From a virus (lineage: Duplodnaviria; Caudoviricetes), in IMG/VR virus record IMGVR_UViG_3300031992_000038, positions 51,874-115,873 of that record: DNA of 64,000 nt; one strand, 5' to 3'. A program made the position numbers and the translations under genes. This document shows positions 29,968-51,086 of the stretch, piece by piece. The notes beneath the pieces were generated by a model, which saw nothing but the letters and a program-made list of their open reading frames with translations, ran no database searches and was not told where the DNA came from. How positions within the stretch are numbered: position 1 is the stretch's first letter; every line of letters begins with the position of its first letter.

Positions 29968-30036
29968 ATGTTGAGAGAGGGATACAACCTCAAAGGGCAA
30001 GGATGAAACCTTGGAGTATATTTTCCATCGCGCCCT
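29968..30036 (+). ncRNA. Candidate structured ncRNA, copy 1 of 3
   Basis: Follows promoter; stems TTGAG/CTCAA, CAAGG/CCTTG, GGAG/TTCC; no ORF. Confidence 0.55.
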
Positions 30037-30289
30037 ATTGTGTAATCTTTAATGTTTCTTTTTTTGTAACATTTTTTTAACACTTAAAATTTGCACATGT
30101 CAGATTTTTTTCTTACCTTCAAGTGCCACCGCACGGGGAGGCTTACCTTGCACAGACGGAAAAAGATTTACATCATTAACATTCTTTAACGGAAAATATT
30201 TGGCCGTCCCAAATATTATGCTTACCTTTCAATCGTCAAGTTAAGGGGGCGACACCCCCACAAGTTAAACCTATTAAAATAATAAGGAT

Positions 30290-30853
30290 ATGGCAACACC
30301 AAATTACCACAAGGCTATGACAAAGCAATACCACGTCATCGAGAGCGAGGATGTGAATGTGTACGACTTGTATGAGCAAATCATGGAATGTGACGGCTTC
30401 GAGCAGTCAAACGTCCACCGCACCCGTCGGGGAGACGTTGTTCTCGGCGAGAAGGAGACTGTAGCACGCTACGGCAAGCGATGCACCTTTGACCTTACAC
30501 TGACAATGCTTGTATCGGTCAACTCGGGGTACTACTTCGGGGCAAACGTGGACTACGAACTATATGCGCACATTGACGGGGGCAGTGATTTCATCCTGTC
30601 ATCCTTCGACACCATCGAGGACGCGGTTGACGCCCTGATGGAGGAGGCATTCGACAACGCCGACTACGATTATGTGTGGTTCAACAAGGGTCTTCAGAAG
30701 ACCCACGAGGAGAGCATCCGCAAGATGTACACCGAAGCCATCGAGAAGGCGATGGAAGAAGGCGAGAAAATCTGCGAGAGCATGGCTGACACGCATCTGC
30801 GCTGCATCGGGGTGTTCAGCAACGGCGAGGCGGTCTACGAGGTTGCAGGCTGA
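30290..30853 (+). CDS. Array cassette gene, acidic hypothetical protein
   Basis: SGYY.GA motif and C-terminal GVFSNGEAVYE. Confidence 0.75.
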   Translation: MATPNYHKAMTKQYHVIESEDVNVYDLYEQIMECDGFEQSNVHRTRRGDVVLGEKETVARYGKRCTFDLTLTMLVSVNSGYYFGANVDYELYAHIDGGSDFILSSFDTIEDAVDALMEEAFDNADYDYVWFNKGLQKTHEESIRKMYTEAIEKAMEEGEKICESMADTHLRCIGVFSNGEAVYEVAG

Positions 30854-31008
30854 CGACAAAGCATCGGGGGCGCACACCGCACCGGATGCGCCCCTACATT
30901 ATACTAAAAGTACTCAAATGAGTACAACATTAACAATTATTAACACGCAAGGTATTGCACATGTCAGAAATTTTGCTTACCTTTGCCACATAACAATTTC
31001 AAAAGATT

Positions 31009-31521
31009 ATGCTAAAAGAAACAAATGCGAAAATCAAGCATGGCGCCGTCATTGATATGTGCGCTACCGGTGCCCACGGCGCAAGCCTGAGAGACCGAAA
31101 GAACCTGTCTTCAGTGACCTTGAAGATGGATGGCGGGCGCACGATGTCGTTCAAGGCCATCCGCCACATGGACGGAGAGCATGACCGCCTTGGCGAGACT
31201 GAGATACTTTTTGAGGACTCGGGCCGAGAGGTGTTCTGCGGAACGCTGACCGAACTTGAGAGCCGTCTCTACAACGTCCGCTATCAATATGAGGGCGAGA
31301 TATACAACCGCGAGGAGTTTGAGGATGTGATCAGGGAACTGCTATGCAGCGGTGACCTGTTCTACAACGACACCCCATTGTTGGACGTTGGTGACGTGAT
31401 AGACGTGGCTGAGAGGGAGCGCAAGTGCTATTTGCAGCATTACGTTGGCGGTCTTGGCGAATGCGCCTACCCTGCAAACCTTTTTGTCAAGGTGGTGACG
31501 CTTGACCGCAAGACACGATAA
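31009..31521 (+). CDS. Array gene, hypothetical
   Basis: Canonical TACCTTTG promoter at ~30978. Confidence 0.7.
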   Translation: MLKETNAKIKHGAVIDMCATGAHGASLRDRKNLSSVTLKMDGGRTMSFKAIRHMDGEHDRLGETEILFEDSGREVFCGTLTELESRLYNVRYQYEGEIYNREEFEDVIRELLCSGDLFYNDTPLLDVGDVIDVAERERKCYLQHYVGGLGECAYPANLFVKVVTLDRKTR

Positions 31522-31808
31522 CGATAAGAGGATTTTTGTGTGTTTTTCATGGCGCCGCGCCCGTCCGCGATGGATAGGTGCGGTTTTCTTTTGCCCTTGC
31601 GCAAGGGTAAGCCTCCCCCTTGCTGCGCAATGGAAGGTAAGCATTTCAGATGACATGTGCAAGGCTTTTAACACTTTTAACCTTTGTGCTTTAACAATGT
31701 TAAAGATGTTAATTTGCTTGCACAACCCAAAAAGTTTACTTACCTTTCGTTTGTCAAGTTAAGGGAATGACACCCCACTAAGTTCAACAATCTAAATCAA
31801 GGAAATAT

Positions 31809-32111
31809 ATGTTTGTTCCTAAGAAGGCAGCCCCTGAGGTTGAGAAATACAAGAAAACAATGTTGCGCGGATGCGCGTTCAGAGTTGACTCGGGTCACGA
31901 TTTCATGGATGTGATTGAGCGGCGAGACATCAACAAATGTGACGCAAAGTATGGTGTAGGTCGAGGCGATTTCAGACGTGTGGAGAAGTACACAGACCAA
32001 TTCACGCAAGCTGTAGAAGAACTGAAACAAGAAGGGTACATCGTCAAGAAAGTTCCTTGCGATTGCAGTCCTGCGTGCCAATACCACGCAAATCTGTATT
32101 ACCTTGCGTAA
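31809..32111 (+). CDS. Array cassette gene, hypothetical
   Basis: Single ORF between modules. Confidence 0.7.
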   Translation: MFVPKKAAPEVEKYKKTMLRGCAFRVDSGHDFMDVIERRDINKCDAKYGVGRGDFRRVEKYTDQFTQAVEELKQEGYIVKKVPCDCSPACQYHANLYYLA

Positions 32112-32456
32112 AACGGCACATAACGGCATCAGACGTTAGGATGGTATAACTAATCGCCTTGGCGGGAAAACGCTCTCACAAGCAAAATGTGGGGCATTTT
32201 CCCGCTATCTGCGTCCAAATATGCACACGGATTTATTTTGCGCCCTTGCGCGATGGGTAAGCCTCTCCGTCTTGCGACACTTGAAGGTAAGGAATTTTCC
32301 TGACATGTGCAAGGCTTTTAACGTTTTTAACATTTCAACCATCGATATGTTAATTGTGTTAAAGTGCTTGCACAATCCAAACATTATGCTTACCTTTCAA
32401 TCGTCAAGTTAAGGGGATGACAACCCCATCAAGTTCAACCATCTAAAAGCAAGAAT

Positions 32457-33143
32457 ATGTCAGCACCAATTAAGACAAAGGGTACCTGCGAGCCGCAGGT
32501 AAGTGAGAAAATCTATAACGCAGTTGTAAGCGCGATTGCGCGCCGCGACGAGGGTGTGTCATCCGTCAAGGTGGACGTGAACCTTGTCGGCCACGGCCTC
32601 CGTCCGTTTGGCGACTACGGACAAGGGGCATACATCGACTTTTCGGTGTCGGTTGAAGGGAAAAAGTTTGACGGACTTGGACGCGTGGAGTTGGCGGAGA
32701 CCGCACGCAAACTGAATGGCATCAAGTCGGCATCGGTTGACGTGGAGAGCAAGGGTCTCTACTTCAGTTACGGGAACTTTGCCCCCGACATGGAGTTCCC
32801 GAGCGTGTTCCGAACATTCGGCAAGCCATGCAAGCAGTTCAAGGAACTGCAAAAACTTGCCGCCCGCAAGGGTCTCACAATTGACGTGAAAGACCTCTAC
32901 AAAGTGCGCTTGTTCGGCAAGCGCGGTGTGTATGACGAGAGCGGGGAGCGCGACTACACCGCCTACAATCCGAGACGTTGCGAGAGCATCATCAGCGGCA
33001 TCAAGGCATGGGGGCGCAAGCGAGTAACGCTCAAGGTGGAGACAGTGGACGATGTCGATGACCTTGAATACTCAATCCGCTACGAGACGGAGTGCTACGG
33101 CTCGCGGTTGAAGACCATCCACGTTGAGCGCAAGACCGCATAG
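32457..33143 (+). CDS. Array cassette gene, hypothetical
   Basis: 228-aa ORF after leader. Confidence 0.75.
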   Translation: MSAPIKTKGTCEPQVSEKIYNAVVSAIARRDEGVSSVKVDVNLVGHGLRPFGDYGQGAYIDFSVSVEGKKFDGLGRVELAETARKLNGIKSASVDVESKGLYFSYGNFAPDMEFPSVFRTFGKPCKQFKELQKLAARKGLTIDVKDLYKVRLFGKRGVYDESGERDYTAYNPRRCESIISGIKAWGRKRVTLKVETVDDVDDLEYSIRYETECYGSRLKTIHVERKTA

Positions 33144-33268
33144 GGTAGTACTCAAATGGGTACAACTGGCGGGTGCAATATCCCGCCCACACTTAAACAT
33201 TTTTTAACACTAAAAATTTGGTTAATTCAATTATTTTACTTACCTTTGTATTGTAAATCATTAAGGAT

Positions 33269-33547
33269 ATGTTAAACTACAACAAAATCATCGACAACGA
33301 GAACTTCATCACAGCTATCAGCAACATCTACGGCCGTTGGTTGGACGAGCAGATGTATGAGAGCGGTGACGACTACAGAGACGTCCTTGTCTCCTTGCTG
33401 AAAAAGTACAATGGCGAGGACATTGACATTACAAATGTCAAGTTCCGCAAAAGGCCATTCGGCATCAAGTTCACCACCCCATGCGACAACAAAGTGTGGC
33501 AACTGAAAGTCACAATGCACACCATAGGCATTCAAAGAATAGGGTAA
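33269..33547 (+). CDS. Array gene, hypothetical
   Basis: RWLDE..YE...DY and KRPFG motifs; TACCTTTG promoter at 33241. Confidence 0.7.
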   Translation: MLNYNKIIDNENFITAISNIYGRWLDEQMYESGDDYRDVLVSLLKKYNGEDIDITNVKFRKRPFGIKFTTPCDNKVWQLKVTMHTIGIQRIG

Positions 33548-33827
33548 GCACGATTTGACTATGGGATTGATGACCGCGCCCGTCCGTGATGGATAGGTGC
33601 GGTTCTTCTTTCACCGCTGACACAAAGGTAAGCCTCCCCTTGCTGCGCAATGGAAGGTAAGCATTTTTCTGCGCATGTGCAAGTCTTTTAACGTTTTTAA
33701 CATTCAATATTTCAATATGTTAAAAGTGTTAATTTGCTTGGCCAATCCAAATATTATGCTTACCTTACGGATGTCAAGTTAAGGGGGCGACACCCCCGCA
33801 AGTTCAACCATCTAATTGTAACGAACA

Positions 33828-34133
33828 ATGAAAGAGAAATTCAATGACTTATCGCTAAAGGTGACTATGGCGAGCCTCGCCCTAAAAGCCAAAGTGTACG
33901 AAGAACTTGAACGCCGCGGGGTGGCGGTGCCCGTCCGTGACGATGACGGAAATCCGTTGCGGTGGACCTATTACCATGAAGGGGATGCGGACATAATAAC
34001 AATCACTGACGTTTGCGCCAATGGCGGTCAGATTATGGTCGGCTTTGAGACTTCGGACGGGACACCGACAGAACTCCCGATTTGGGATTTCATTGACGGG
34101 ATTGATATAATTGACTATATCCAATGGGATTAA
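33828..34133 (+). CDS. Array cassette gene, hypothetical
   Basis: ORF after leader. Confidence 0.7.
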   Translation: MKEKFNDLSLKVTMASLALKAKVYEELERRGVAVPVRDDDGNPLRWTYYHEGDADIITITDVCANGGQIMVGFETSDGTPTELPIWDFIDGIDIIDYIQWD

Positions 34134-34146
34134 AAACGTAAAAGGT

Positions 34147-34725
34147 ATGTACACGATTAAACACAACAACAAGATTAAATACAACGATAAGGAAGGCTCG
34201 GTCGGAGAAAACGGCTTGTTTGCCACAATGGAAGAGGCATGCGCCGAGTTGGAGAAAATGGAGGACCGCCTTATCGCAGAGTTCGGCGAAACCCCATACG
34301 ACTGCTCAGAGGACAGGGACGATGATGAGCGCCTGACTTGGTTCATCCTGCTCAACAACAAGACGCACTCCTCATGCGAGGCGTGGGTGGACGTTGACGA
34401 GCAGACCAAACACGCGGAGAACGTCAACTATCTGAACCATTGCATCGGTATCATGTACAACGGGGAAACCGATAGCGGCACGGAACTTGAGGCATACACG
34501 CCTGCAGGCGAGGACATGATTATCAACCTTGATAAACTGACACGGGCTGAGTTCCTTTCGTGGGTAGACGATTTTGACATCAACGAACGCGTCGTGATGT
34601 GGTGGCCTAACGGACACAAAGCAGAGGGGCAAGGGGTGCCGTTCAACAACATCATGGAGCATTACTTGGACTACCAAAAGTTCCTCAACACAATGCGCCA
34701 AATCGCAGAGGGAATGCCGTATTAG
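34147..34725 (+). CDS. Array gene, acidic hypothetical protein
   Basis: ELEAYTPAGEDMII motif; second gene of cassette. Confidence 0.7.
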   Translation: MYTIKHNNKIKYNDKEGSVGENGLFATMEEACAELEKMEDRLIAEFGETPYDCSEDRDDDERLTWFILLNNKTHSSCEAWVDVDEQTKHAENVNYLNHCIGIMYNGETDSGTELEAYTPAGEDMIINLDKLTRAEFLSWVDDFDINERVVMWWPNGHKAEGQGVPFNNIMEHYLDYQKFLNTMRQIAEGMPY

Positions 34726-34975
34726 GAAAAGCAATTCTATCGTAGTTCCGTGTGCGCTCGCCCACAACAGGGTGGGCGCATACATTTTATCCGCACCGCC
34801 GGCGCGAGGGTAAGCCTCCCCGTCTTGCGACACTTGAAGGTAAGCATTTTCCTCTACGCGTGCAAGGCTTTTAACACTTTTAACACTTCTGTAGCGTATA
34901 TGTTAAAAACGTTAATTTGCTTGTGTAATTCAGATATTATGCTTACCTTTCGTATGTAATCATTAAGGATATGGC

Positions 34976-35146
34976 ATGAAAAAGAAAAAAGACAACACTA
35001 ACATCATCACCGCAATTTTTTGGTGGTTCGGTGTATTGGTCGGAATACCGGCCGCAGCGTTAAGCGCGTTCAAGTTGGACGCCGGTGGATTTCTCATCTT
35101 TGCACTGCTTTCAGTGCCGTGTATATATACTTCGTTTAACCATTAA
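34976..35146 (+). CDS. Small two-TM membrane protein (56 aa, not in the ORF track)
   Basis: MKKKKDNTNIITAIFWWFGVLVGIPAAALSAFKLDAGGFLIFALLSVPCIYTSFNH directly after leader. Confidence 0.6.
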   Translation: MKKKKDNTNIITAIFWWFGVLVGIPAAALSAFKLDAGGFLIFALLSVPCIYTSFNH

Positions 35147-35153
35147 AAAGCAA

Positions 35154-35564
35154 ATGATTATGGGACAGTTTTCGTGGTTCACGCAAGACACACACCACCG
35201 CATCCAAAACGGGCACAAGTTCCGTGTGGTCATGGCGGACAACAATGGCAACAAGTACGTAGAGGATTGTTATGAAGGCTATGGAGTCTTCGGCGGCAAG
35301 GACTATTATGCACTGCTCGCCGAGATGAACGGCCACACGCTCGCAGAGTTCAACGGAGACGAGGAAGCGTTGCGTCTCAAGGGCATTGAACTTGCGTTTG
35401 ACGGGCACCCAGAGGGGAACAACCCCAACGTGCTGCATCCTTCGCTCACCGAGAGCGGGGACTACATGGACGGAACGCCGCCCGAGATTGACCCAAATCA
35501 GGGGTTCGATGACTTTTGGCTGAGACCCTATGAGGGCAACGAGGAGGACGAGGAATACTTGTAA
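35154..35564 (+). CDS. Array gene, hypothetical
   Basis: MGQFSW...YEGYGVFGGKDYY...DPNQG motif set. Confidence 0.75.
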   Translation: MIMGQFSWFTQDTHHRIQNGHKFRVVMADNNGNKYVEDCYEGYGVFGGKDYYALLAEMNGHTLAEFNGDEEALRLKGIELAFDGHPEGNNPNVLHPSLTESGDYMDGTPPEIDPNQGFDDFWLRPYEGNEEDEEYL

Positions 35565-35790
35565 TAACTTGACAATGCGGGCGGATGCCACACACGGCAC
35601 CGCCCATTTCTTTTGCCCAAACGCAAGGGTAAGCCTTCCCGTCTTGCGACACTTGAAGGTAAGGAAAAATCCCCACATGCGCAAGTGTTTTAACGTTTTT
35701 AACATTTCATCAAACAATGTGTTAATTGTGTTAAAGTGCTTGTATAATTCAGATATTATGCTTACCTTTCGGATGTAATCATTAAAGATA

Positions 35791-36045
35791 ATGTATATGG
35801 ACTACCAACAAATAAACGAGATGCTCATGGACGCGTGCCGAGAGCAAATAAAAAAGTTCGATGGCGAGTTAAACCTAACGTCCAACAACTACGGGTTCTG
35901 CACCGCGTGGTTGGAAGACGATGAAGTGTGGTGGGACAAGGACTTAGACCACATGGATAGCGAGATGAGCGAGACTACAGAACTCTCCGCTCTGTTGGAC
36001 ACAATCTTAAAGACCGAAAAGGAACTTGAGGATGAAAAGCAATAG
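35791..36045 (+). CDS. Array cassette gene, acidic hypothetical protein
   Basis: ORF after leader. Confidence 0.65.
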   Translation: MYMDYQQINEMLMDACREQIKKFDGELNLTSNNYGFCTAWLEDDEVWWDKDLDHMDSEMSETTELSALLDTILKTEKELEDEKQ

Positions 36046-36223
36046 GACATACGAAACAGGCTATTCAATGGGATACGATTGGGTGGCCTATGAGGGCGGC
36101 AACCCATCACGCGTTGTGTCCGAACTGCGGGCGAGGGGCGCATCCCCAAGACAACAATGGGGTGTGGCATTTATGCAAGGCGCAAGGGATGCCGCGCAGG
36201 GACTGCCAAGGAAATACAACTAA
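36032..36223 (+). CDS. Array gene, hypothetical
   Basis: Overlaps previous stop. Confidence 0.55.
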   Translation: MKSNRTYETGYSMGYDWVAYEGGNPSRVVSELRARGASPRQQWGVAFMQGARDAAQGLPRKYN

Positions 36224-36511
36224 ACCACGCGACATAGGGATAAATCATGCGTAATTTATAGTTTTGGCCGCCGCACTTGTCCGAGAGGGATAGGTGCGGT
36301 TCTTCTTTCACCGCCGGCACGAGGGTAAGCCTCCCCGTCTTGCGACACTTGAAGGTAAGCATTTTCTGTGACATGCGCAAGTCTTTTAACGTTTTTAACA
36401 CTTCTGTAGTGTATATGTTAAAGATGTTAATTTGCTTGCACAAACCGGAACTTTTACTTACCTTTCGTTCAGAAATCAAGGGATAATCCCAAGATATGAA
36501 AAGCGTCTGTC

Positions 36512-36715
36512 ATGATTATAATAACATTTAGGATAGAAGAAGCGGGAACCTTCGATAAGGTCGCGGTTCATTGCGCTGACAACATCGAGGCGCGATGCGT
36601 CATTGGGTATGTCATTGGGTTACGCAAGGTGTCTAACGTCCGAATGAACCGATGCGGACGATGCGCAAAGGGGACCAAGCATTACACGAAGGACGAGTTC
36701 TTCAGTCGTTACTAA
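36512..36715 (+). CDS. Array cassette gene, hypothetical
   Basis: ORF between promoters. Confidence 0.55.
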   Translation: MIIITFRIEEAGTFDKVAVHCADNIEARCVIGYVIGLRKVSNVRMNRCGRCAKGTKHYTKDEFFSRY

Positions 36716-36794
36716 GTGTTAAAAGTGTTAATTTGCTTGCACAATCCAAATATTATGCTTACCTTTCGTATGTAATCATTAAAGGAAAAATATT

Positions 36795-36992
36795 ATGAGA
36801 GTAACAAACATCCTATGGGACACTGACGGGGAGAGCGTTGACCTCCCAACCGAGGTCGATATTATTGACAACATCGACGAGGACGAGGTGGCCGACTACC
36901 TGTCGGACGAGTACGGATATTTGGTGGAAAGTTTTTTTCTGCCGGAGAAAGAGACTGAGTTTTACGACAATCTGGACAACTGGATTGGATGA
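36795..36992 (+). CDS. Array gene, very acidic small protein
   Basis: NILWDTDGE..DLPTEV...VADYLSDEYGYLVESF. Confidence 0.7.
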   Translation: MRVTNILWDTDGESVDLPTEVDIIDNIDEDEVADYLSDEYGYLVESFFLPEKETEFYDNLDNWIG

Positions 36993-37025
36993 GAGATAAT
37001 TGTTAAACCACAAAAAATCCCAACA

Positions 37026-37433
37026 ATGGAAATGGAAAAAGAACTCAAAATCAACGGCTATCCCGCCTATCAGGCAACCGCCGAGAACATTATGGCCGCA
37101 TACGAGGCCGCCGAGAGTGAGACCGAGAAGGCTGAAATCGCCAAGTACTACATGGAGAGCCGACTCAAGTATGAGGTGTGCCGCAAAGACGAGACCAAGG
37201 ACGAGAACTTCGGCCGCAAGTTCGAAGACTTTGTAAACGGCCCTATGTGCGACCCACGCAAGGTGGCCGACCGAATGGCCCGTGCGCACCGCTACCTCGT
37301 TCAGAAGATGTTCGAGGTCTGCTACGAGTTCATCCGCATCCTCGCAGAGCATTTCGACAAAGGATGGTACGACCCGCGAGACGAATGGGCATGCAAGACC
37401 TCCAAGAAGATTTGGGAGACCATCAACGGCTGA
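37026..37433 (+). CDS. Array gene, hypothetical
   Basis: HRYLVQ...YDPRDEWAC motif. Confidence 0.7.
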   Translation: MEMEKELKINGYPAYQATAENIMAAYEAAESETEKAEIAKYYMESRLKYEVCRKDETKDENFGRKFEDFVNGPMCDPRKVADRMARAHRYLVQKMFEVCYEFIRILAEHFDKGWYDPRDEWACKTSKKIWETING

Positions 37434-37763
37434 CAATATCCTTTTTAACTTGACTGACGTGACAGAGCGGAACCGGCAATGGCCGGTCCGCCCTGTCGGG
37501 ACAGGAGCGGAACCGAAACGAGCGGTCTGCCCTGTCCCACTTTTTTGTGCCCTTGCGCGATGGGTAAGCCTCTCCGTCTTGCGACACTTGAAGGTAAGGA
37601 ATTTTCCTGACATGTGCAAGGCTTTTAACGTTTTTAACATCTCTATGTTGAATATGTTAAAAGTGTTAATTTGCTTGGCCAATCCAAATAAATTACCTAC
37701 CTTCCCATTGTCAAGTTAAGGGAGTGACACCCCGCAAAGTTCAACCCTCTATATAGTCAAGTT

Positions 37764-37949
37764 ATGGAGAACGAAAAGAAAAAAGAATTTATCATAAATT
37801 TCCGTTGCTCGGCGGTCATCGAGGCCGAGAGCGGTCGTGAGGCGATGGAGATTTTTCAGAACATGGACCTCCGCCTGCCGGAGAACGTGGAGTTCACCGA
37901 ATATATCAATGTCTTGGACACGAACACCTTTGAGGAGGTTGAGGTATGA
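37764..37949 (+). CDS. Array cassette gene, DpnD/PcfM-like small protein
   Basis: KEFIINF...VIEAES..EA. Confidence 0.6.
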   Translation: MENEKKKEFIINFRCSAVIEAESGREAMEIFQNMDLRLPENVEFTEYINVLDTNTFEEVEV

Positions 37950-38305
37950 ACTACGACTACACATTTGAACAGGAGTACAAGGACGACAAGCGCAAAGAGA
38001 GTTTTCTGTTCTTCTCGTTGGGTATCGTTCAGGTGCCCTACTACAATAACTCCTACGGCTACCGCACCTACCGGTTCCCACGAACATACAGGGGAGACCG
38101 AATGGTGATTGAGTTCACCGAATACCTCAGGGAGAAGGGTCGCGGGTATGAACTGAACTACATATTCTGTCCCGAGTGGGAGCAGCAGGTCGCAGACACA
38201 GGCCCTCTTCCACCCAAACCGGAAAAGCGCAGTCTGTTCTCACGGATAGCGGGCCTTTTCAAGCGAGAGAAGGAGGTCCCATTGCAGACCACACGGAAGA
38301 TTTGA
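37946..38305 (+). CDS. Array gene, hypothetical
   Basis: ATGA-coupled. Confidence 0.65.
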   Translation: MNYDYTFEQEYKDDKRKESFLFFSLGIVQVPYYNNSYGYRTYRFPRTYRGDRMVIEFTEYLREKGRGYELNYIFCPEWEQQVADTGPLPPKPEKRSLFSRIAGLFKREKEVPLQTTRKI

Positions 38306-38560
38306 GCATACGGGCGGTTGACACATGTCACCGCCCATTTCATTCACCCTTTCGCAAGGGTAAGCCTCCCCGTGCGGTGGCACTTGAAGGTAAGGAATTT
38401 TCCTGACATGTGCAAGGCTTTTAACGTTTTTAACATTTGCACTTTAATAATGTTAAAAGTGTTAATTTGCTTGCATAGTTCAAATTTTATGCTTACCTTT
38501 CGTTTGTCAAGTTAAGGGAATTGACACTCCCACAAAGTTCAACCATCTAAAATCAAGGAT

Positions 38561-42747: not shown

Positions 42748-43027
42748 TCGTTTGCGTTTTTAGATGGTGTGTGGCGGAATGGTAACGAATCCATCCGCCA
42801 CGCTTTTTTCGTCCTCACCGCAAAGGTAAGCCTCCCCGTGCGGTGGCACTTGAAGGTAAGAAATTTCCGTGAAATGCGCAAGTTAATTAACACTTTTAAC
42901 ATTTCAACTTTTAACAAATTTTTAACACAATATATTTGACCATTCCAAATAAAATGCTTACCTTTCAATCGTCAAGTTAATGGGAGTGACACCCCCGAAA
43001 GTTCAACCATCTAAAAGCAGAACAACA

Positions 43028-43993
43028 ATGAAAGCAAAACCAAAAGTCGGTGACATCATCTACTATGACGGAAACAAACTGAAGGCCACAAGCAAGAAGA
43101 AATGGAGCGCGTCGCTCGGCACACCCGTGGCGGTGGTGGTTATCCCTGCCTCCCACATGCCTGACGGAAAGTGCAGGGGAATGTCGCTGTGCAACATGTC
43201 GTACAAGACACCGCAGACGGGCACGCTCGGAACGGGCAACGACAACGCTGAGGCCAACGGCACGAATCTGATGTGGGGCGTTCACGGAACGGATGTCTCG
43301 GGTCTGACGAACTACGGCAACATCATGTCCACAAAAGGAATAACAATGCTCGATTTCGGTCTCTTTCCGAGCGACCTGTTCAAGGGCGTGATAACAATGC
43401 TCGATTTCGTGAAGAGACCGGGTGTCCTGTTCGATGGAATGGACACCCAAAACAATGAGGACGACACCGAGACCGCTTGGATGAAGACAAGAGAAGCACG
43501 CGCAATCTCCCCCTACGCCTCTGACGGCTCACAGAACCCAGCGTACATCACCGCGGGTCAGGCCCTCGCCGACATGGACGGCAAGGCGAACACAAAGGTT
43601 ATTGCCAACCTCTCCGCAATCAAGGACACCTATTCGGGTGGAGCGTTCGAGAACATTGAGGAGAACTACCCCGCAGCGTTCGCTTGCACCCTTTTCAGCA
43701 CACGCGGAACCTCTCAAGGTGATTGGTACCTCCCAGCAATGGGTGAGTTGGGCTATCTGTACACGCGTATCAAGAGAATCAACGAGTCTCTCGCCGCACT
43801 CGGCACATCAGCCGTTCAGTTCGGCGACCAAACGAAGGACCTCTCTTCTTTGGGCTCTTGGTGTTGGTCTTCGACAAAGTGCTATAGTTACGCATCATAC
43901 GGACTAACCTACTATGGCGGTTTTTTCGGCGGCGGTAGGGAACTCAACGAAGATGACTACCGAGTGAGGGCATTCGCTGCATTTGACTTATAA
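43028..43993 (+). CDS. DUF1566/C-type-lectin-like protein, untagged paralog of 6501-7628
   Basis: Long near-identical blocks, e.g. ASLGTPVAVVVIPASHMPDGKCRGMSLCNMSY. Confidence 0.85.
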   Translation: MKAKPKVGDIIYYDGNKLKATSKKKWSASLGTPVAVVVIPASHMPDGKCRGMSLCNMSYKTPQTGTLGTGNDNAEANGTNLMWGVHGTDVSGLTNYGNIMSTKGITMLDFGLFPSDLFKGVITMLDFVKRPGVLFDGMDTQNNEDDTETAWMKTREARAISPYASDGSQNPAYITAGQALADMDGKANTKVIANLSAIKDTYSGGAFENIEENYPAAFACTLFSTRGTSQGDWYLPAMGELGYLYTRIKRINESLAALGTSAVQFGDQTKDLSSLGSWCWSSTKCYSYASYGLTYYGGFFGGGRELNEDDYRVRAFAAFDL

Positions 43994-44273
43994 TGTGTTC
44001 CGCGACCTATTGGGCGAGTGCCACACACGGCACCGCCCATTTCATTCGCCCTTGCGCGTGGATAAGCCTCCCCGTCTTGCGACATTGGAAGGTAAGAATT
44101 TTTCCTGACATGCGCAAGTTAATTAACACTTTTAACACTTCCGAAAAAAGTTTATCTAATTAACATTCTTTAGCAGAATATATTTGGCCAATCCAAATTT
44201 TATGCTTACCTTTCGGTTGTCAAGTTAAGGGGATTGACACCCCCACAAGTTCAACCATCTAAATCTTTAGATT

Positions 44274-45365
44274 ATGATTATCAACAACGCTTTCGCAAAC
44301 GCAGCAGCAGTCATCAACCCCACAACGGCAACACCCGCCGCACCCGCGTGGGCACTTTTCGGAACCACCTACGACAAGCCCGTCACCATTGACGAGGTCT
44401 TTGAGGACGACAAGACGGGCCTTAATTATGAGGTCACTGAGCAGCCCATTGTCCGTGTTCCTCAGAGCGTCATTGACGCAATCCGCGCAGGTGAGCCGTT
44501 CAATTGGGAGCCCAACCCCAACACCATCATCGACACCCACAAGGCCACAGTCTACGGAACTGACGGGGCAACGCTCGGTGTCGTAGGTCAGTCCTATGGA
44601 GTGGTCCAAAACCGCAAGGCCATGGAGTTCATCAACTTCATCGAGGAGTGCAGCGGTCACAAGCCCGAAATCGTTGCAGCGGGTTATCTCGGCAAGGGCG
44701 AGAGAATGTTCGTCACCGCACGTTTGGGAGAGGACGTGTACATCGGCAAGGATGACGCCGTCACGAACTATGTGGTGTTCACAAACTCGCATGACGGGTC
44801 AGGCTCGGTCACCGCAATGCTGACACCCATCCGAGTGGTGTGCCAAAACACGCTCAACATGGCACTGAAACAGACCGCCAACAAGCTGTCGTTCCGTCAC
44901 ACCTCAAAGGTTGAGGAGCGTCTCGACTTCCAAATTGCCGCCAACCGCGAGCGCGCCGCCGCCGTGTTCAAGCAGTACAATGTGTTCACCGAGCAGTTCA
45001 TCGCCGCAATGCTCGACCTGAAGGACCAAGACGTGACCAAGGCCGACACGATGGAGTTCGCCGCACGGATGTTCATGAGCCCCGCACAACTCAAGTTGTG
45101 GAACCTCGCAGACCGAGACATGGACAAGGTGGACGAGATCCCCACCCGTATGAAGAACAACGTGAACGCGTTGCTCTCCGCAATCGAGAGCGGTATCGGT
45201 CAGGCTCAGCACCGAGGGACAAAGTTGTGGCTGCTCAACGGCCTCACGACCTACCTGCACAACGAACGCAAGTGGTCCACACCGCAGGACGAGTACAAGT
45301 CGCTGATGGAAGGTGACGGACTGAAAAAGGTGCAGAAGGCATACGAATGGCTCAAAGCGGCCTGA
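44274..45365 (+). CDS. DUF932/DUF945 phage-plasmid protein
   Basis: LGVVG..Y.VVQN..A..F, G.L..GER.F, NSHDGSGS, TPIRVVCQNTL, RHT, GT..W..NG.T.Y. Confidence 0.88.
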   Translation: MIINNAFANAAAVINPTTATPAAPAWALFGTTYDKPVTIDEVFEDDKTGLNYEVTEQPIVRVPQSVIDAIRAGEPFNWEPNPNTIIDTHKATVYGTDGATLGVVGQSYGVVQNRKAMEFINFIEECSGHKPEIVAAGYLGKGERMFVTARLGEDVYIGKDDAVTNYVVFTNSHDGSGSVTAMLTPIRVVCQNTLNMALKQTANKLSFRHTSKVEERLDFQIAANRERAAAVFKQYNVFTEQFIAAMLDLKDQDVTKADTMEFAARMFMSPAQLKLWNLADRDMDKVDEIPTRMKNNVNALLSAIESGIGQAQHRGTKLWLLNGLTTYLHNERKWSTPQDEYKSLMEGDGLKKVQKAYEWLKAA

Positions 45366-45740
45366 CGCACGACACACCACACGGAGCGGGCGGTTGACAC
45401 ATGTCACCGCCCGTTTCTTTTGCCCTTTCGCAAAGGTAAGCCTCCCCGTGCGGCAGCACTTGAAGGTAAGCATTTCCGGTGACATACGCAAGGCTTTTAA
45501 CGTTTTTAACACTTCTGTAGCGCGTATGTTAAAAGTGTTAAAGTCATTGCACAAATGAAAAATTTTCCTTACCTTCCATTGCGCAGCGAGGGGAAGCTTA
45601 CCCACGCGGTCACAACCACACCTTCATTTTTAACAAATTATTAACATTTTATATTTGGCCAATCCAAATAAAATGCTTACCTTTCAATCGTCAAGTTAAG
45701 GGGAATGACAACCCCAACAAGTTGAACCATCTAAATCTCT

Positions 45741-46229
45741 ATGATTATGAAAAAGTTACATCAAGTAATGGTAAAAGAAGCATTTGCAAACCTCAACTGC
45801 GTGGTGTCTGACAACCTCGCCGCACACATTGGCGAGAACGGAAAAGTGGACGCTACGGCGTTCCGAATCGCGTTGGACGCGTACAACCGCTATCAGGAGG
45901 ACGAATGCGATGGATGTGATTACGTCTTCAACATCAGCAACCAAGATGACCTGTCGGTTCTTGTCAAGTGCGGAACAACAGCACAGGAAATCGCCGACAT
46001 GGTGGCAACCGGTTTCACGATGTTCCACGTGGGGTACAACTACCCGAAGCCGCAACCACTTTCACAAATGGACGTGTGCCGCGCCATCATCGGTATTTCG
46101 GACGCACTGACGAACACCGCGATGCTGCTGCAAAACCAAAGCAGCGACTACTCCAAGTTCCTTGACTTCTTCCTCTATGACGAGGTGATGAAGGAAACAG
46201 ACCTGTACGCGCTTCTCACCAAGCAGTAA
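45741..46229 (+). CDS. Array cassette gene, hypothetical
   Basis: ORF after leader. Confidence 0.7.
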   Translation: MIMKKLHQVMVKEAFANLNCVVSDNLAAHIGENGKVDATAFRIALDAYNRYQEDECDGCDYVFNISNQDDLSVLVKCGTTAQEIADMVATGFTMFHVGYNYPKPQPLSQMDVCRAIIGISDALTNTAMLLQNQSSDYSKFLDFFLYDEVMKETDLYALLTKQ

Positions 46230-46537
46230 CGGCGGCGGACACATACGGACGCGGGCGAGTGCCACACACGGCACCCGCCCATTTCTTTTGCCCGCACACA
46301 CACACAAAGGTAAGCCTCCCCGTCTTGCGACATTTGAAGGTAAGCCTCCCCGTCTTGCGACATTGGAAGGTAAGCAAATTTTCCCATATACGCAAGTTAA
46401 TTAACATTTTTAACATTTCAACTTTTAACACATTTTTAACACTTTAAATTTGGCCAATTCAAAAAAATGTCTTACCTTTCAGATGTCAAGTTAAGGGAGT
46501 GACATCCCACAAGTTAAACCATCTAAATGCAGCAGAT

Positions 46538-46852
46538 ATGAAACTACTGACGAAAGCAATTGAGAACAAGTTGGCAAAGCGGCCCCTTTACTCGCAAGAC
46601 GGAAAGGGCGGAGAGGCCGAAATCATCGTGAAATTCTTCAACCCATGCGGAGCGGGCACATGGTATGTGCTTGAGGGAGAGAAGCAAGCAAACGGAGATT
46701 GGTACTTTTTCGGTCTTGCCGAAATCGGTTACGGGCTTGAATACGGATATTTCTCGCTCAACGAACTGAATAGCCTGCGCTTGCCGTTCGGACTGACCAT
46801 CGAGAGAGACCTGTATTTCAGCGGCAAGGTTAAGGACGTTATGAAAGACTGA
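46538..46852 (+). CDS. DUF2958-family protein
   Basis: KFFNPCGAGTWY..E...FFGL....EYGYFSL.EL....IERDLYF. Confidence 0.85.
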   Translation: MKLLTKAIENKLAKRPLYSQDGKGGEAEIIVKFFNPCGAGTWYVLEGEKQANGDWYFFGLAEIGYGLEYGYFSLNELNSLRLPFGLTIERDLYFSGKVKDVMKD

Positions 46853-46858
46853 CACGCC

Positions 46859-47068
46859 ATGATAGAGTTCAAATATACCGATGTTGTCCTCTATGACGGG
46901 GACACCGAGACCGAGAGCGGAGAGGCGCACAAAGTTCTTTCAATTGACGAGACGGGCGCCCACATGGACAACGGGGAGACGTGGTGCTATGGCGACCTGA
47001 GCGACTATGAGTTCGGCATCCTTTCCAAATCATTAGAACACGAACTGCAAAAACTGACAGAACAATGA
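46859..47068 (+). CDS. Array gene, hypothetical
   Basis: Operon with DUF2958 gene. Confidence 0.6.
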   Translation: MIEFKYTDVVLYDGDTETESGEAHKVLSIDETGAHMDNGETWCYGDLSDYEFGILSKSLEHELQKLTEQ

Positions 47069-47364
47069 AGGAAGAAATTATCAAACAAGTGGCGGCATAC
47101 GTCACATGCGGATGGGGGTACACATACCCCAAGAACGTGACCTGCGACACAAGCGAGGGGACAATCACGCTCAACGAACTGACGCAGACCATAGACGATA
47201 ACATATCGCTCACCTACTCCACAGGTGACGGACGAATTGCGGTGAAACGTCTCGCGGACTTCACCGAGAGGGAAATGGTGGAAATCATCAACAAGGCCGT
47301 GCTGACCAAGTTTTGGGGCAACGCGCTCACAAAGGAACTGAAAGAAAACAACATCAAACTCTAA
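47065..47364 (+). CDS. Array gene, hypothetical
   Basis: ATGA-coupled. Confidence 0.6.
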   Translation: MKEEIIKQVAAYVTCGWGYTYPKNVTCDTSEGTITLNELTQTIDDNISLTYSTGDGRIAVKRLADFTEREMVEIINKAVLTKFWGNALTKELKENNIKL

Positions 47365-47368
47365 GGAT

Positions 47369-47647
47369 ATGAAACTGACAGAAAACGACATCAAGCGACT
47401 GAGACGAATAGGGTACATGGACCACGATATTACGTGGATAGAGAAAGACCTCTACAACGACCGCTACACCTATGAACTATACCGAACCGACAACGGCAAG
47501 AAGGTAAAGGACCTGACGGCCGAGAACGCAATCAGGTGGGTAGGGCGCAAGAATTTCCTTTCAGGGATAGGTCGGGCCTGCTTCCACCATACGGCGGTCA
47601 GAGAGGGCAAAAACGGACGTTACGTGTTTTTTGAATGCAACGACTAA
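47369..47647 (+). CDS. Array gene, hypothetical
   Basis: GR..FLSG..RA.FH.TA.R motif. Confidence 0.65.
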   Translation: MKLTENDIKRLRRIGYMDHDITWIEKDLYNDRYTYELYRTDNGKKVKDLTAENAIRWVGRKNFLSGIGRACFHHTAVREGKNGRYVFFECND

Positions 47648-47866
47648 CCGCACGACCAACACCACAGAACGGGCGAGTGCCACACACGGCACCCGCCCAT
47701 TTTTTTGCGCCCACACGCGATGGGTAAGCCTCTCCCCCTATCGGCACTTAAAGGTAAGATTTTTTCTTGACATGTGCAAGGACTTTAACACTTTTAACAT
47801 TTCAACTTTTAACAAAGTTTTAACACTCAAAATTTGGCCGTTCCACATAAAATGCTTACCTTCTGA

Positions 47867-47935
47867 ATGTTGGGAGAACAGAAATCTCCCAAAGGGCAAG
47901 GATAAGACCTTGGAGTATAATCTCCGACGCGCCTT
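47867..47935 (+). ncRNA. Candidate structured ncRNA, copy 2 of 3
   Basis: TTGGGAGA/TCTCCCAA, CAAGG/CCTTG, GGAG/CTCC stems after promoter. Confidence 0.55.
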
Positions 47936-48078
47936 GAAATATAGAATATATTGTTTGTTTATCTTTAACAAATTTTTAACACTTTATTTTTGGCCGTTCC
48001 AAAATTTTTACTTACCTTTCGGTTGTCAAGTTAAGGGGAGTGACACCCCCGCAAGTTGAACCATCTAAACGCAGAACA

Positions 48079-48330
48079 ATGGACATCTACACCATCGCAT
48101 TCGCAACAACCAACGGCGGAGACCTCTACATGGAGACAAAGGTCTACACCGACAAGAGCCTCGCAATGTACGCCCTGCGCGGATACGCTGAGAGCATCAT
48201 CGAGGACAACGCGCTCGACACCGACGCGGACACGCTCATCGCACAGCACACGACCACCTACCCCACAGGGGTGAAAATGCTCACCTACAACGGGGAGTAC
48301 ATGGTCGAACTCAAGAACGTCAAACTCTAA
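48079..48330 (+). CDS. Array cassette gene, hypothetical
   Basis: ATG after conserved leader. Confidence 0.65.
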   Translation: MDIYTIAFATTNGGDLYMETKVYTDKSLAMYALRGYAESIIEDNALDTDADTLIAQHTTTYPTGVKMLTYNGEYMVELKNVKL

Positions 48331-48335
48331 ACAAA

Positions 48336-48803
48336 ATGACCGATATGGGAAGGTATACAGACATCTATGCCGAAGTGCGCACTGACTACAACGCTGACGG
48401 GTTCACCTGCATCGACGCGTGGCGCACAGATGACGACAACGAGGAGGGACGCACAGTGGCCGTGGTCCACGAGAGCGGGGACGTCTACTACAACGAGCCC
48501 GAGGCCCGCAGAAGCCAAATGGTGACCGAGGCCGTTGCGCAGGTAAGGGCCCGTGCGCAAACCCTCAACGAGCAACGGATGCTCGAGCAGCACATGACCG
48601 ACTATTGGCACGATGACAGAATCGCCGAGATCGACGACATCTGCTGCCTCATGGACCAAGACGGGGACGAGGTAAAACTCGCACGGCTCGCAGAGGAATA
48701 CAAGGGATGCGACCCCAAGGCCGAACACGACCGACTGATGCGCGAGTGCCTCGAGGAGGCGTTCCGAAACTACCTCAACAAGTACTACCAAGTACCCAAA
48801 TGA
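48336..48803 (+). CDS. Array gene, hypothetical
   Basis: IDAW.TDDDNEEG..VA motif. Confidence 0.7.
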   Translation: MTDMGRYTDIYAEVRTDYNADGFTCIDAWRTDDDNEEGRTVAVVHESGDVYYNEPEARRSQMVTEAVAQVRARAQTLNEQRMLEQHMTDYWHDDRIAEIDDICCLMDQDGDEVKLARLAEEYKGCDPKAEHDRLMRECLEEAFRNYLNKYYQVPK

Positions 48804-48876
48804 GTACAATCAGACAACACTAACTAACAACAACGGGGCGGCACGAACAACCACCCAACAAAAAACAACTACGACA

Positions 48877-49440
48877 ATGACACTAAGGACAAAGCAGCAG
48901 GTGGCCGAGCGAATCACCAAACTGCTCGCAATAATCGACAAGAACGACAAGACAAAGGTCTCAGCCCTCATGCGCAAGAACGACATGGAGCAACTGCTCC
49001 GTATGGAGAGCGAACTCACGGCCAAGGCGCAGGCGGCCGTCGGATGCGCGCCGCAACCCGCAATCACAGCCGAGGAACTCGACCAAGCGAAACGGGCATA
49101 CCTCGATGACATGGAGCGACTCGCCGAGCGAGTCAACAAAGCACTCAAGCAGTCGGGATACGGGTTCACGTTCACCACACCCACAGGGCCATCGTCATCG
49201 CTGAAGATGGACGGGGAGACTATCTACACCTCACTGAACGACAAGGGACAGATAAGAATCACCATCCCTTCGGCCACAATCACTCCCGAGACCGAACACA
49301 GCAAGACAACGCTCCTCGGACAAGCGGCGAGACTTTGCGGGGACATCGCCACGCTCGGGACAATGGAGGACGCACTGCGCACATCCTCGCGCAGGCTGAC
49401 CGAACTCGCAGGACTGAACAAACAACACAAAGCACAATAG
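48877..49440 (+). CDS. Array gene, hypothetical
   Basis: 187-aa ORF. Confidence 0.65.
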   Translation: MTLRTKQQVAERITKLLAIIDKNDKTKVSALMRKNDMEQLLRMESELTAKAQAAVGCAPQPAITAEELDQAKRAYLDDMERLAERVNKALKQSGYGFTFTTPTGPSSSLKMDGETIYTSLNDKGQIRITIPSATITPETEHSKTTLLGQAARLCGDIATLGTMEDALRTSSRRLTELAGLNKQHKAQ

Positions 49441-49447
49441 GACGACA

Positions 49448-49660
49448 ATGGGAAAGACAATCAAAATCAAGGTGGCCGACACCTTCAGCGGACAATCACT
49501 CACATTCCGCACAACCGCCGACAAACTCGCGGCGGAAGGACGATGGACATGGCTCACGCGCTCACAACGCAGCAGACTTGAACAAGCGTTCGGCAAACCG
49601 AGATGCTACTACTGCACAATCCTCACAAGCGAGGACAACGAATTCCACGCATACAACTAA
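49448..49660 (+). CDS. Array gene, hypothetical
   Basis: Operon position. Confidence 0.55.
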   Translation: MGKTIKIKVADTFSGQSLTFRTTADKLAAEGRWTWLTRSQRSRLEQAFGKPRCYYCTILTSEDNEFHAYN

Positions 49661-49673
49661 CCGACAAAAGGAC

Positions 49674-49961
49674 ATGGACAGACAGAAGGCGAACAGAATG
49701 GCGGAAGCCATACTATCGGATAAGACGATGGCAAAACACGTACTGAAACACGAATGGCTGAGCGGCTCGTCCACAATGGTCGCACCGCTGACAATCGGAG
49801 CGAACTACGCAAGCGCGCAGGTGGACACCGACAAACCGAACACGCTGAACAAAGCAATCAGACGAATCGTTGACAACAACACGGACCTGTTCGGAGACGG
49901 GCGGTTCTGCAAGTCTGACGGAAGCTGCCCAAGCGAGGTGAGATTCTACTACGCGGACTGA
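49674..49961 (+). CDS. Array gene, hypothetical
   Basis: ATG at 49674 after previous stop. Confidence 0.6.
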   Translation: MDRQKANRMAEAILSDKTMAKHVLKHEWLSGSSTMVAPLTIGANYASAQVDTDKPNTLNKAIRRIVDNNTDLFGDGRFCKSDGSCPSEVRFYYAD

Positions 49962-50301
49962 ACACCAAACTACCGATAAAAACAACAATCCCCACTCATC
50001 AAAACCAACCTGATGAATGGGGGTTGTTCGCTTTTGGAACAATTTTTAAAATTTTCCCTATGGGGATTTTCCCGAACAAGGCGAATTCAGTTCCGTTTTG
50101 GAACAATTTTACCAAAGGTAAGCCTTCCCGTCTTGCGACATTTGAAGGTAAGCATTTTCCTCGACATGTGCAAGAGATTTAACTTTTTTAACACTTCTGT
50201 AGCAAGTATGTTAAAAGTGTTAATTACATTGGCCGTTCCAAATATTTTGCTTACCTTCCATCCGTAAAATGAAAGTTAAACCATAAACAAAACATCAGAC
50301 T

Positions 50302-50691
50302 ATGAACTATCTCAGTTATCACCTGAATGACGGGGCGGACTGGCAAGCAAGAGCAGTCCTCGCGTGTCTCGGAACATGCGGAGTCCCCGAGAACGTGGAC
50401 CTCAACGTGGCACGCTATCAGAACGGACGCGAGCAGGGGTACATCTTCACCGCACGCGTGAAACACACCGAGAGACAGCGCAATTACGCCGTATATGAGC
50501 ATCGCAACTCTGACGACCTTTGCGTGGTAGTGAACGACACGCACACATTCGGAGAACCCGCCTCAGAAATCATCTACGAAGGCATGAAGGACAAGTGGGA
50601 CACCACAAAGGACTTCCGCTGCGGGCAAATCCTTGAATGCGCTGAATGGATTCAGGACGACATCAGCGAGTGGGCGCAGCAGGAGAACTGA
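50302..50691 (+). CDS. Array cassette gene, hypothetical
   Basis: NGREQGY and EHRNSD motifs. Confidence 0.75.
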   Translation: MNYLSYHLNDGADWQARAVLACLGTCGVPENVDLNVARYQNGREQGYIFTARVKHTERQRNYAVYEHRNSDDLCVVVNDTHTFGEPASEIIYEGMKDKWDTTKDFRCGQILECAEWIQDDISEWAQQEN

Positions 50692-50809
50692 CAACACGCA
50701 CATACAGACAACCGATGACGGCCCGAGAACGCTGCACAAAGCGACCCGGGCCGCCAACGTAACCAAAAACAACGATTTCAGCGAACCGCCCAAAACGCTC
50801 AACAAAACC

Positions 50810-50932
50810 TCCTGCAAATTATAGCGAAATCAGTTCGCAGGAGCGGCGGGCACTGGATGACATCCCGTTCAGCGAAATCCCTGCGAATATCAACGAATTT
50901 CCTGCGAATTATAGCGAAATTGCTTGGCAGGG
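50810..50932. repeat. Short imperfect direct repeats (CCTGCRAAT..AGCGAAAT)
   Basis: cctgcaaattatagcgaaat at ~50811, cctgcgaatat at ~50880, cctgcgaattatagcgaaat at ~50901. Confidence 0.6.
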
Positions 50933-51015
50933 AAACGGACACTGGAACCTTGCGTTTTTAACACATTTTTAACATAATATATTTGGCCATTCCAAATATT
51001 ATTCTTACCTTTCAA

Positions 51016-51086
51016 ATGTTGGGAGAGGAACACCACCGCTCCCAAAGGGCAAGGGTAAGTCCTTGGAGTATAATCTCCGACGCGCA
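51016..51086 (+). ncRNA. Candidate structured ncRNA, copy 3 of 3
   Basis: TTGGGAG/CTCCCAA, CAAGG/CCTTG, GGAG/CTCC stems after promoter. Confidence 0.55.

Follow-up and report, generated by a model that had tools for sequence, protein, structure and literature searches.

A phage-restricted family of putative small-RNA genes with a covarying hairpin and an invariant 12-nt word in uncultivated giant phages of Bacteroidales

Introduction

Regulatory and decoy RNAs of phages, such as RNA anti-CRISPRs, viral single-guide RNAs (sgRNAs) and tRNA decoys, are only starting to be recognised, and very little is known about them in phages of the Bacteroidales, the dominant bacteria of gut and rumen. The present analysis concerns a 64,000-nt stretch of phage DNA (the window), which comprises bases 51874-115873 of the 115.9-kb IMG/VR viral contig IMGVR_UViG_3300031992_000038. 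At three sites in an array of short, promoter-led gene cassettes, a promoter is followed by a structured RNA element instead of an open reading frame (ORF). An initial annotation of the window interpreted these sites as a triplicated, undescribed phage RNA and possibly a decoy. This raises the question what the three elements are, whether they stand alone or belong to a wider family, and what an RNA in such a position might do.

CheckV completeness of the 115.9-kb record was 32%, which implies a genome of roughly 360 kb. The terminase encoded in the window is T4-like. Its best match among isolates was that of Flavobacterium phage immuto, with 26% identity, followed by gp17-type terminases of cyanophages.

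Results

Three promoter-led RNA elements in the window

Elements were found at 29968-30036, 47867-47935 and 51016-51086, all on the + strand and exactly where the initial annotation had placed them. At each site, the layout that it had described, ATG-TTG(R)GAG...CTC(Y)CAA-AGGG-CAAGG-N6-CCTTG-GAGTATAWTYTCC-RWCGCGC, could be read a few bases after CTTACCTT. Mean column identity in a 161-nt alignment around the three copies was 82%. The core pattern AAGGGCAAGG-N6-CCTTGGAGTATA had exactly three matches in the window, against none expected from 100 shuffles, and a covariance model (see below) recovered only these three copies, in the window and likewise in the whole 115.9-kb record. Their parts are as follows.

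29884..29965, + strand: copy 1 promoter module, with phased TTTAACA boxes, a -33 TTTG at 29934 and the -7 box TACCTTAC at 29958-29965
near 29970, + strand: copy 1 start, predicted from promoter spacing
29970..30040, + strand: copy 1 RNA (covariance-model match 29986-30038, 59.1 bits)
29971-29975 and 29989-29993, + strand: optional 5' hairpin of copy 1 (TTGAG/CTCAA)
29996-29997 and 29998-30013, + strand: GG and hairpin P2 of copy 1 (CAAGG-ATGAAA-CCTTG)
30014-30026, + strand: conserved word of copy 1, GAGTATATTTTCC, followed by the C-rich tail ATCGCGCCC
47807..47864, + strand: copy 2 promoter module, with TTTTAACA boxes, a -33 TTTG and the -7 box TACCTTCT at 47857-47864
near 47869, + strand: copy 2 start, predicted from promoter spacing
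47869..47940, + strand: copy 2 RNA (covariance-model match 47885-47937, 57.3 bits)
47870-47877 and 47885-47892, + strand: 5' hairpin of copy 2 (TTGGGAGA/TCTCCCAA)
47895-47896 and 47897-47912, + strand: GG and P2 of copy 2 (CAAGG-ATAAGA-CCTTG)
47913-47925, + strand: word of copy 2, GAGTATAATCTCC, followed by the tail GACGCGCC
50956..51013, + strand: copy 3 promoter module, with TTTTAACA boxes, a -33 TTTG and the -7 box TACCTTTC at 51006-51013
near 51018, + strand: copy 3 start, predicted from promoter spacing
51018..51090, + strand: copy 3 RNA (covariance-model match 51038-51090, 52.9 bits)
51019-51025 and 51039-51045, + strand: 5' hairpin of copy 3 (TTGGGAG/CTCCCAA, 13-nt loop)
51048-51049 and 51050-51065, + strand: GG and P2 of copy 3 (CAAGG-GTAAGT-CCTTG)
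51066-51078, + strand: word of copy 3, GAGTATAATCTCC, followed by the tail GACGCGCA

Each copy is preceded by TTTG-N20-(C)TTACCTT, with two to four TTTAACA boxes, spaced by approximately 11 bp, further upstream. Promoters of the Bacteroidota type carry TTTG at -33 and TAnnTTTG at -7, the -7 element spanning -12 to -5 (PMC6847099). This spacing therefore predicts transcription starts near 29970, 47869 and 51018, in each case the G of the 'ATG'.

As initially noted, copy 1 (TTGAG/CTCAA) departs from copies 2 and 3 (TTGGGAG(A)/(T)CTCCCAA) in both arms of stem 1, and the loop of stem 2 differs among the three copies. The RNA of copy 2 has a predicted folding energy of -23.8 kcal/mol (z -3.0). The description of the sites as promoter-led units without an ORF was also correct: no reading frame is conserved, and a 4-nt indel in the loop of stem 1 shifts copy 3. 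A coding peptide was considered and rejected, since the 12-aa frames seen in copies 1 and 2 are out of register in copy 3, and relatives either lack the ATG or read ATG-TGA.

A family of 159 copies in phages from rumen and gut

The picture of a local triplication proved wrong, the window copies being members of a family of 159 copies in phage contigs from rumen and gut. Degenerate core patterns were run first, on IMG/VR contigs of 55-282 kb, on contigs binned with a yak-rumen Paludibacteraceae metagenome-assembled genome (MAG) and with one other MAG, and on 60 metagenome contigs, whose record names, where they state a source, point to rumen and human gut. A covariance model was built on 67 of the resulting sequences. 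The covariance-model search proposed in the initial annotation, run on the 460 kb of phage loci that had been fetched, yielded the 159 matches at E <= 1e-4. About 80 of these do not fit the search pattern and were found by the model only. Large contigs carry 3-8 copies, which are clustered inside 5-21 kb and always located some 30-65 kb away from the terminase gene. Terminases of four large RNA-carrying relatives were 61-64% identical to that of the window and thus represent the same lineage throughout.

No copy was present in 50,697 GenBank phage records. In 150 Bacteroidales genomes, strong matches to the covariance model occurred only on three contigs, probably phage-derived, of a single MAG. 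A host-encoded homologue that had been copied by the phage was rejected as an explanation: the same genomes contained five weak matches (22-24 bits), all in promoter-less sequence and four of them in apparent coding sequence, which are read as chance. The family is phage-restricted and confined to an uncultivated lineage of giant (~360-kb) Bacteroidales phages of rumen and gut.

A covarying hairpin beside an invariant word

The conserved object measures 31 nt and consists of GG, a 5-bp helix (P2, stem 2 of the initial annotation) with the loop G-U-R-A-M-A, one purine and the word AGUAUAKUCUCC. P2 was paired in all 143 distinct sequences, with changes on both sides at all five pairs (UA/CG 95/48; AU/GC 115/27; GC/AU/UA 114/23/6). 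Double-change cells numbered 120, compared to 28 ± 4 in shuffles, and pairing collapsed when the partner was slid by one column. Mutual information and RNAalifold independently recovered P2 and no other helix. Covariation therefore proves that the P2 helix is real. It contained 21 G.U pairs, no A.C and no unpaired cell, and the occurrence of G.U without A.C places the helix on the promoter-sense strand, where a transcript would have it. The word (columns 30-41) has near-zero entropy, while the adjoining helix runs through 15 stem types.

Of the multi-way junction that had been proposed for the window copies, only stem 2 was retained, on the strength of this covariation; the closing stem, stem 3 and the notion of a ~70-nt junction as the conserved object were not. 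Of the three copies, only the first has an intact GGGC/GCCC closing stem, which is partly formed in copy 2 and broken by a G.A mismatch in copy 3; it occurs in a GC-richer subgroup that includes copy 1 and is not family-wide. In stem 3 (GAG/CUC), the first pair (29-40) is unpaired, with A opposite C, in 58 of the 143 sequences. Stem 1 is an optional 5' hairpin, which occurs with unrelated sequences in the three window copies and in many relatives, and the shortest relatives have only 8-12 nt ahead of the GG. Purines dominate the 5' arm (56% A, 7% C); the tail contains C and little G. A possible alternative GGAG/CUCC helix, formed by the upstream GG plus AG with CUCC and interrupted by P2, is pairable in 99.5% but invariant.

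Three pairings were rejected on tests across the family. The closing stem P1 gave flank pairing (5' with 3') of -4.76 kcal/mol, which was no better than the -4.58 kcal/mol obtained with permuted partners. For pairing of the GG with a downstream CC, the CC was present in 37% of copies, against 29% by chance. A pseudoknot in which the P2 loop would pair with the 3' tail (GUGAC/GUCAC) showed no covariation.

In one subfamily (loci L010, L011, L012, L020, L022, L041, L049, L066 and L077; for example L011 3695-3760, - strand), CUCC is followed by UUGG-GGAG-C-AUUUUUAUUU. CUCC has two possible partners here, one upstream (GG..AG) and one downstream, the latter giving a short hairpin in front of a U-run. 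This could represent an alternative-pairing or terminator arrangement, confined to this subgroup.

Comparison with known RNA families

The Infernal/Rfam check that had been suggested gave no Rfam 15 match, hammerhead and other small ribozymes included, consistent with an undescribed family. No Rfam family reached its gathering score in the window and none matched any searched copy (the three window copies, two G001 copies and 21 copies in relatives) at E <= 10 or E <= 1; families covered included riboswitches, small ribozymes, FopS, JUMPstart, C4 and ToxI. The elements are not tRNAs, as stated at the outset, nor are they transfer-messenger RNAs (tmRNA): ARAGORN detected no such gene in the window, and the P2 loop has 6 nt instead of the 7 nt of an anticodon loop. 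Mimicry of a CRISPR repeat, either as an RNA anti-CRISPR (Racr) or as a solitary repeat, was rejected because the core pattern occurred in no CRISPR array of 185,579 species genomes. In addition, the 150 Bacteroidales genomes showed no repeat-like runs of covariance-model matches, and the RNA core does not resemble the phage's own 36-nt Cas12a repeat.

Promoter linkage and autonomy of the unit

The match TTG-N18-22-TAnnTT[TA]N was found immediately upstream of 122 of 140 copies across the family, and most of the others retain the -7 box. From the end of this box to the GG, the median distance is 21 nt. In having a promoter of their own (122/140), no conserved ORF and 159 copies across one lineage, the elements behave as small-RNA genes.

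The next ORF lies on the same strand for 77 and on the opposite strand for 38 of 115 callable copies, a further 16 being ambiguous. In locus L070, all four copies are on the strand opposite to that of all seven genes. Throughout the window and its relatives, a second complete promoter with TTAACA boxes of its own always intervenes between the element and the next gene. Furthermore, in loci L038 and L039 a 144-nt tRNA-like fold is inserted between the promoter and the RNA element. Since 38 of 115 copies face an opposite-strand gene, the element is not an obligate mRNA leader. Orientation, the intervening promoter and the L038/L039 insert together indicate a free-standing small RNA, instead of an mRNA leader or a cis element of the nut/put type. 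These results agree with the original proposal of a self-contained promoter-plus-RNA unit that takes cassette slots in the way protein genes do.

The 144-nt insert (L038 2010-2160, - strand, and the matching part of L039) folds at -43.8 kcal/mol and has a closing stem GGCTCA/TGAGCC and a perfect T-arm, GGGG-TTCGATT-CCCC. It was called by neither ARAGORN nor Rfam, and may be an unusual tRNA-like RNA that is co-transcribed with the element. tRNA genes are present in several of the RNA-bearing regions. The stable RNAs C and D of phage T4 are single-copy, longer and tRNA-like at the 3' end. They resemble the present RNAs as small non-coding RNAs among the tRNA genes of a T4-type phage, one variant here standing behind a tRNA-like RNA, and differ from them in that this family is multicopy and not tRNA-like.

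In locus L033 (9350-9540), two tandem RNA units are followed by a stretch of ~190 bp that contains no ORF and about 14 TTAAC(A) boxes at a spacing of roughly 10-12 bp. This box density, far above that of ordinary promoters, could reflect a protein-binding array or an origin-like region.

Discussion

A proposed trans-acting RNA that binds a conserved protein

That the three sites belong to a family of small-RNA genes is very probable. The fuller reading favoured here, in which each site is an autonomous small-RNA gene whose early, multicopy product acts in trans by binding a conserved protein, as a decoy or as a cofactor, is tentative and rated at slightly less than an even chance. Its argument has three parts. 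The helix varies while the loop and the word remain unchanged in phages whose terminases have diverged to ~62% identity, which suggests sequence-specific recognition by one conserved partner. The presence of several copies behind strong early-type promoters points to dosage. Autonomy, finally, points to action in trans.

Under this reading, an early promoter of the host sigma-A type would fire into a non-coding RNA of roughly 60-150 nt, in which a purine-rich 5' arm, sometimes with a hairpin, would precede the 31-nt module and a tail would follow it. Three to eight paralogous copies would be kept in the early cassette region of the lineage. The hairpin would expose the invariant word to one conserved protein, either a host factor or a phage protein, as a binding site of high affinity. 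Synthesised from many copies at once by strong early promoters, the RNAs would then titrate this protein (decoy or sponge) or arm it (cofactor) at host takeover. For the decoy idea, the early-type promoters, the multicopy dosage, the invariant word and an AcrIII-1-like neighbour (see below) constitute circumstantial support.

A more far-reaching interpretation, possible but decidedly doubtful, is that the family represents a new class of RNA-based counter-defence or host takeover, in which several paralogous RNAs would swamp the cell within minutes of infection, capturing and neutralising a conserved host protein. That protein would belong to immunity, as a sensor or effector, or else act in RNA processing or termination, and would be reached without mimicry of a CRISPR repeat, a tRNA or another known host RNA. 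Racrs (PMC10651486) and viral sgRNAs (bioRxiv 10.64898/2026.06.01.729453) occupy a host immune protein and are comparable to the present RNAs in being small non-coding phage RNAs with their own promoters, located in anti-defence regions and combining a constant scaffold with a variable flank. They differ in mimicking a CRISPR repeat or guide scaffold, whereas the freely varying stem of the present RNA is not what a Cas-specific repeat would show. Small RNAs by which phages occupy host proteins are already known, and this family matches none of them, nor any curated RNA family.

For a metagenomic find, the family is unusually well defined by its copy number, its covarying helix, its strict promoter linkage and an invariant 12-mer that would mark a specific partner. 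Its 31-nt core provides a direct handle on what these ~360-kb uncultivated phages may target first after infection.

Several observations weigh against a protein-binding RNA that acts in trans. Transcription, the RNA ends, the partner and the effect are all deduced from sequence. The invariant 12-mer fits a base-pairing seed as well as it fits a protein site. No consistent intrinsic terminator was found: a run of four or more T residues occurs within ~70 nt downstream of the word in only 99 of 140 copies (median distance 25 nt). Two thirds of the callable copies are co-oriented with a gene, at a tight median distance of 142 nt to its ATG, which also fits a role in cis. Moreover, the search pattern behind approximately half of the members already prescribed AAGG/CCTT, the GG and most of the word, and the alignment was fitted to the model, so that the percentages given for conservation and pairing are inflated to some extent. 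Most of the covariation is carried by the roughly 80 model-only copies.

Alternative explanations

A family of base-pairing small RNAs (sRNAs) is the first alternative, and an unlikely one. AGUAUAKUCUCC would then be the seed for a conserved site (complement GGAGAMUAUACU) in host or phage mRNA, with FopS- or Qrr-like dosage. An invariant, single-stranded-looking word beside a generic hairpin is what such a seed would look like, and the unit is autonomous and, as in the case of the 14 FopS sRNAs, combines multiple copies with canonical Bacteroidota promoters (PMC11697453). However, the window contains no complementary site except the antisense strand of the elements themselves, no site was found in the rpsU (bS21) leaders of five genomes, and interaction energies of the word with Bacteroidales 16S and partial 23S rRNA were weaker than those of shuffled queries. 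In addition, the upstream GG and AG can pair with CUCC and would partly occlude the word.

A close precedent for such a family is FopS/GibS of Bacteroides thetaiotaomicron, a set of many paralogous sRNA genes of ~65-70 nt whose products are bound by RbpB (PMC11697453). As in the phage family, each of these paralogues has a canonical sigma-ABfr (-33/-7) promoter and a shared block with a variable remainder (PMC11697453). FopS is host-encoded and has its seed at a single-stranded 5' end, followed by a terminator hairpin, whereas the present RNA is phage-encoded, has the hairpin first and the invariant word after it, and is not matched by the deposited FopS Rfam model.

Less probable again than base pairing is a transcription-control element that acts in cis in the nascent RNA, similar to nut/put or ops/JUMPstart, and either pauses the polymerase or loads a factor for terminator read-through into downstream cassettes. 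The lambda nut (boxA/boxB) and HK022 put RNAs work in cis, on the polymerase that transcribes them, and are always co-oriented with the genes that they serve. The present element is always promoter-proximal, its core beginning at about +5 to +30, and joins a boxB-like 5-bp hairpin with a GNRA-like loop to an invariant 12-mer; it precedes a same-strand gene, at a median of 142 nt, in 77 of 115 callable copies. Both nut and put share with it the promoter-proximal position, a 5-bp hairpin with a purine-rich, GNRA-like loop, a linear element and the presence of several copies per genome. G31 and C41, which are 10 nt apart, presumably resemble the G(-10)/Y(-1) pause consensus. Co-orientation with a controlled operon, on the other hand, is not general, as 38 of 115 callable copies (one third) point into the 3' end of an opposite-strand gene and are convergent with it. 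Between the element and the gene there is always a second, full promoter with upstream boxes of its own, the L038/L039 element lies ~190 nt from its promoter, behind the tRNA-like RNA, and there is no sequence similarity to nut or put.

It is quite improbable that the RNA is a small-molecule aptamer that would act in trans and soak up a metabolite or a nucleotide of immune signalling. The combination of a freely covarying helix with junction and loop nucleotides that do not change, in a small and compact core, is compatible with an aptamer, and the AcrIII-1-like ring nuclease in the array suggests that the phage contends with cyclic-oligoadenylate signalling. Against it, support exists for one helix only, a selective pocket would have to be built from very little (31 nt and a single 5-bp stem), no Rfam riboswitch class is resembled and there is no expression platform.

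A DNA-level site, whose hairpin and word would be read in single-stranded DNA by an HUH-type nickase, a transposase or a recombinase and would mark sites of cassette mobility or replication, is very improbable: the nic sites of relaxases and Rep proteins have a similar hairpin-plus-flanking-word architecture and the array shows clear shuffling in its empty cassettes and captured genes, but a fixed short distance behind a same-strand promoter (122/140 copies) is needless for a DNA site, only 3 of ~30 window cassettes carry the element, which is therefore not a cassette boundary, and G.U (in DNA, G.T) without A.C reflects use of one strand, which fits RNA and, of DNA, only the top strand.

The surrounding cassette array

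A wider cassette-promoter pattern had 29 matches in the window, all between 22.7 and 51 kb, against none expected. The array and the neighbouring genes with Pfam matches are listed below.

22764..51170, strand not assigned: cassette array of about 30 promoter-led units, defined by the promoter pattern, three slots being taken by RNA units
23697-24011, - strand: 104-aa cassette protein with a match to PF08960 (STIV B116-like; Pfam, 34.5 bits against a cut-off of 26)
44274-45365: DUF932 protein (Pfam, 143 bits)
46499-46852: DUF2958 protein (Pfam, 69 bits), in a cassette neighbouring that of the DUF932 protein

PF08960 is taken here to be the AcrIII-1 ring-nuclease family, and this AcrIII-1-like match, as judged from sequence similarity, would mark the array as at least partly anti-defence. 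In conjugative elements, DUF932 and DUF2958 proteins are often encoded in the leading or anti-restriction regions.

The array resembles the promoter-early stem-loop (PeSL) cassettes of T4-type phages, a hyperplastic region in which each small ORFan lies between a strong early promoter of the host type and a stem-loop terminator, with evidence of shuffling (PMC2839356). In the window, the T4-like terminase and the 29 promoter-pattern matches are accompanied by a terminator hairpin and T-run behind the gene that ends at 29751. Two differences were apparent. PeSLs are the frames of cassettes and not their cargo, whereas here the conserved RNA is the cargo of some cassettes, and the promoters of the window follow the Bacteroidota -33/-7 scheme and have phased TTAACA boxes. 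T4-like phages can thus carry RNA cargo besides ORFans in their early cassette arrays.

Most other cassettes consist of a leader, GTCAAGTTAAGGGG..CCCC..CAAGTT, and a small ORF. This conserved mRNA leader of ~50 nt, (A)TCGTCAAGTTAAGGGG-AGTGACA-CCCC-GCAAGTTCAACCATCTAAA, stands behind most cassette promoters (window 26040-48080, ~20 sites, for example 48019-48080) and precedes an AAGGA-type ribosome-binding motif and ATG. Its GGGG/CCCC stem differs between copies in length and sequence. The loop word UGACA is common to the leader hairpin of the window (GGGG-AGUGACA-CCCC) and to the P2 loops of many relatives, which could signal a common RNA-binding factor or be a coincidence. The three RNAs of the window have other loops, and the covariance model does not match the leaders.

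Just upstream of the window (L097 4205-8569, corresponding to G000:C1 ~44204-48568), a 1206-aa Cas12a is encoded (Pfam RuvC_1, NUC and REC1 of Cpf1), and behind it lie 11 copies of a 36-nt repeat that ends in AAATACCTACTTGTGTAGGT. Cas12a was absent from the four RNA-carrying relatives with 61-64% identical terminases.

A second unit without an ORF occurs right after RNA copy 1 (window 30072-30167), where a promoter at 30075-30119 is followed by CAAGTGCCACCGCACGGGGAGGCTTACC and then by the boxes of the next promoter. Hairpins flanked by GGTAAG/CTTACC are also found behind terminators, for example at 29815-29860 and 47715-47760.

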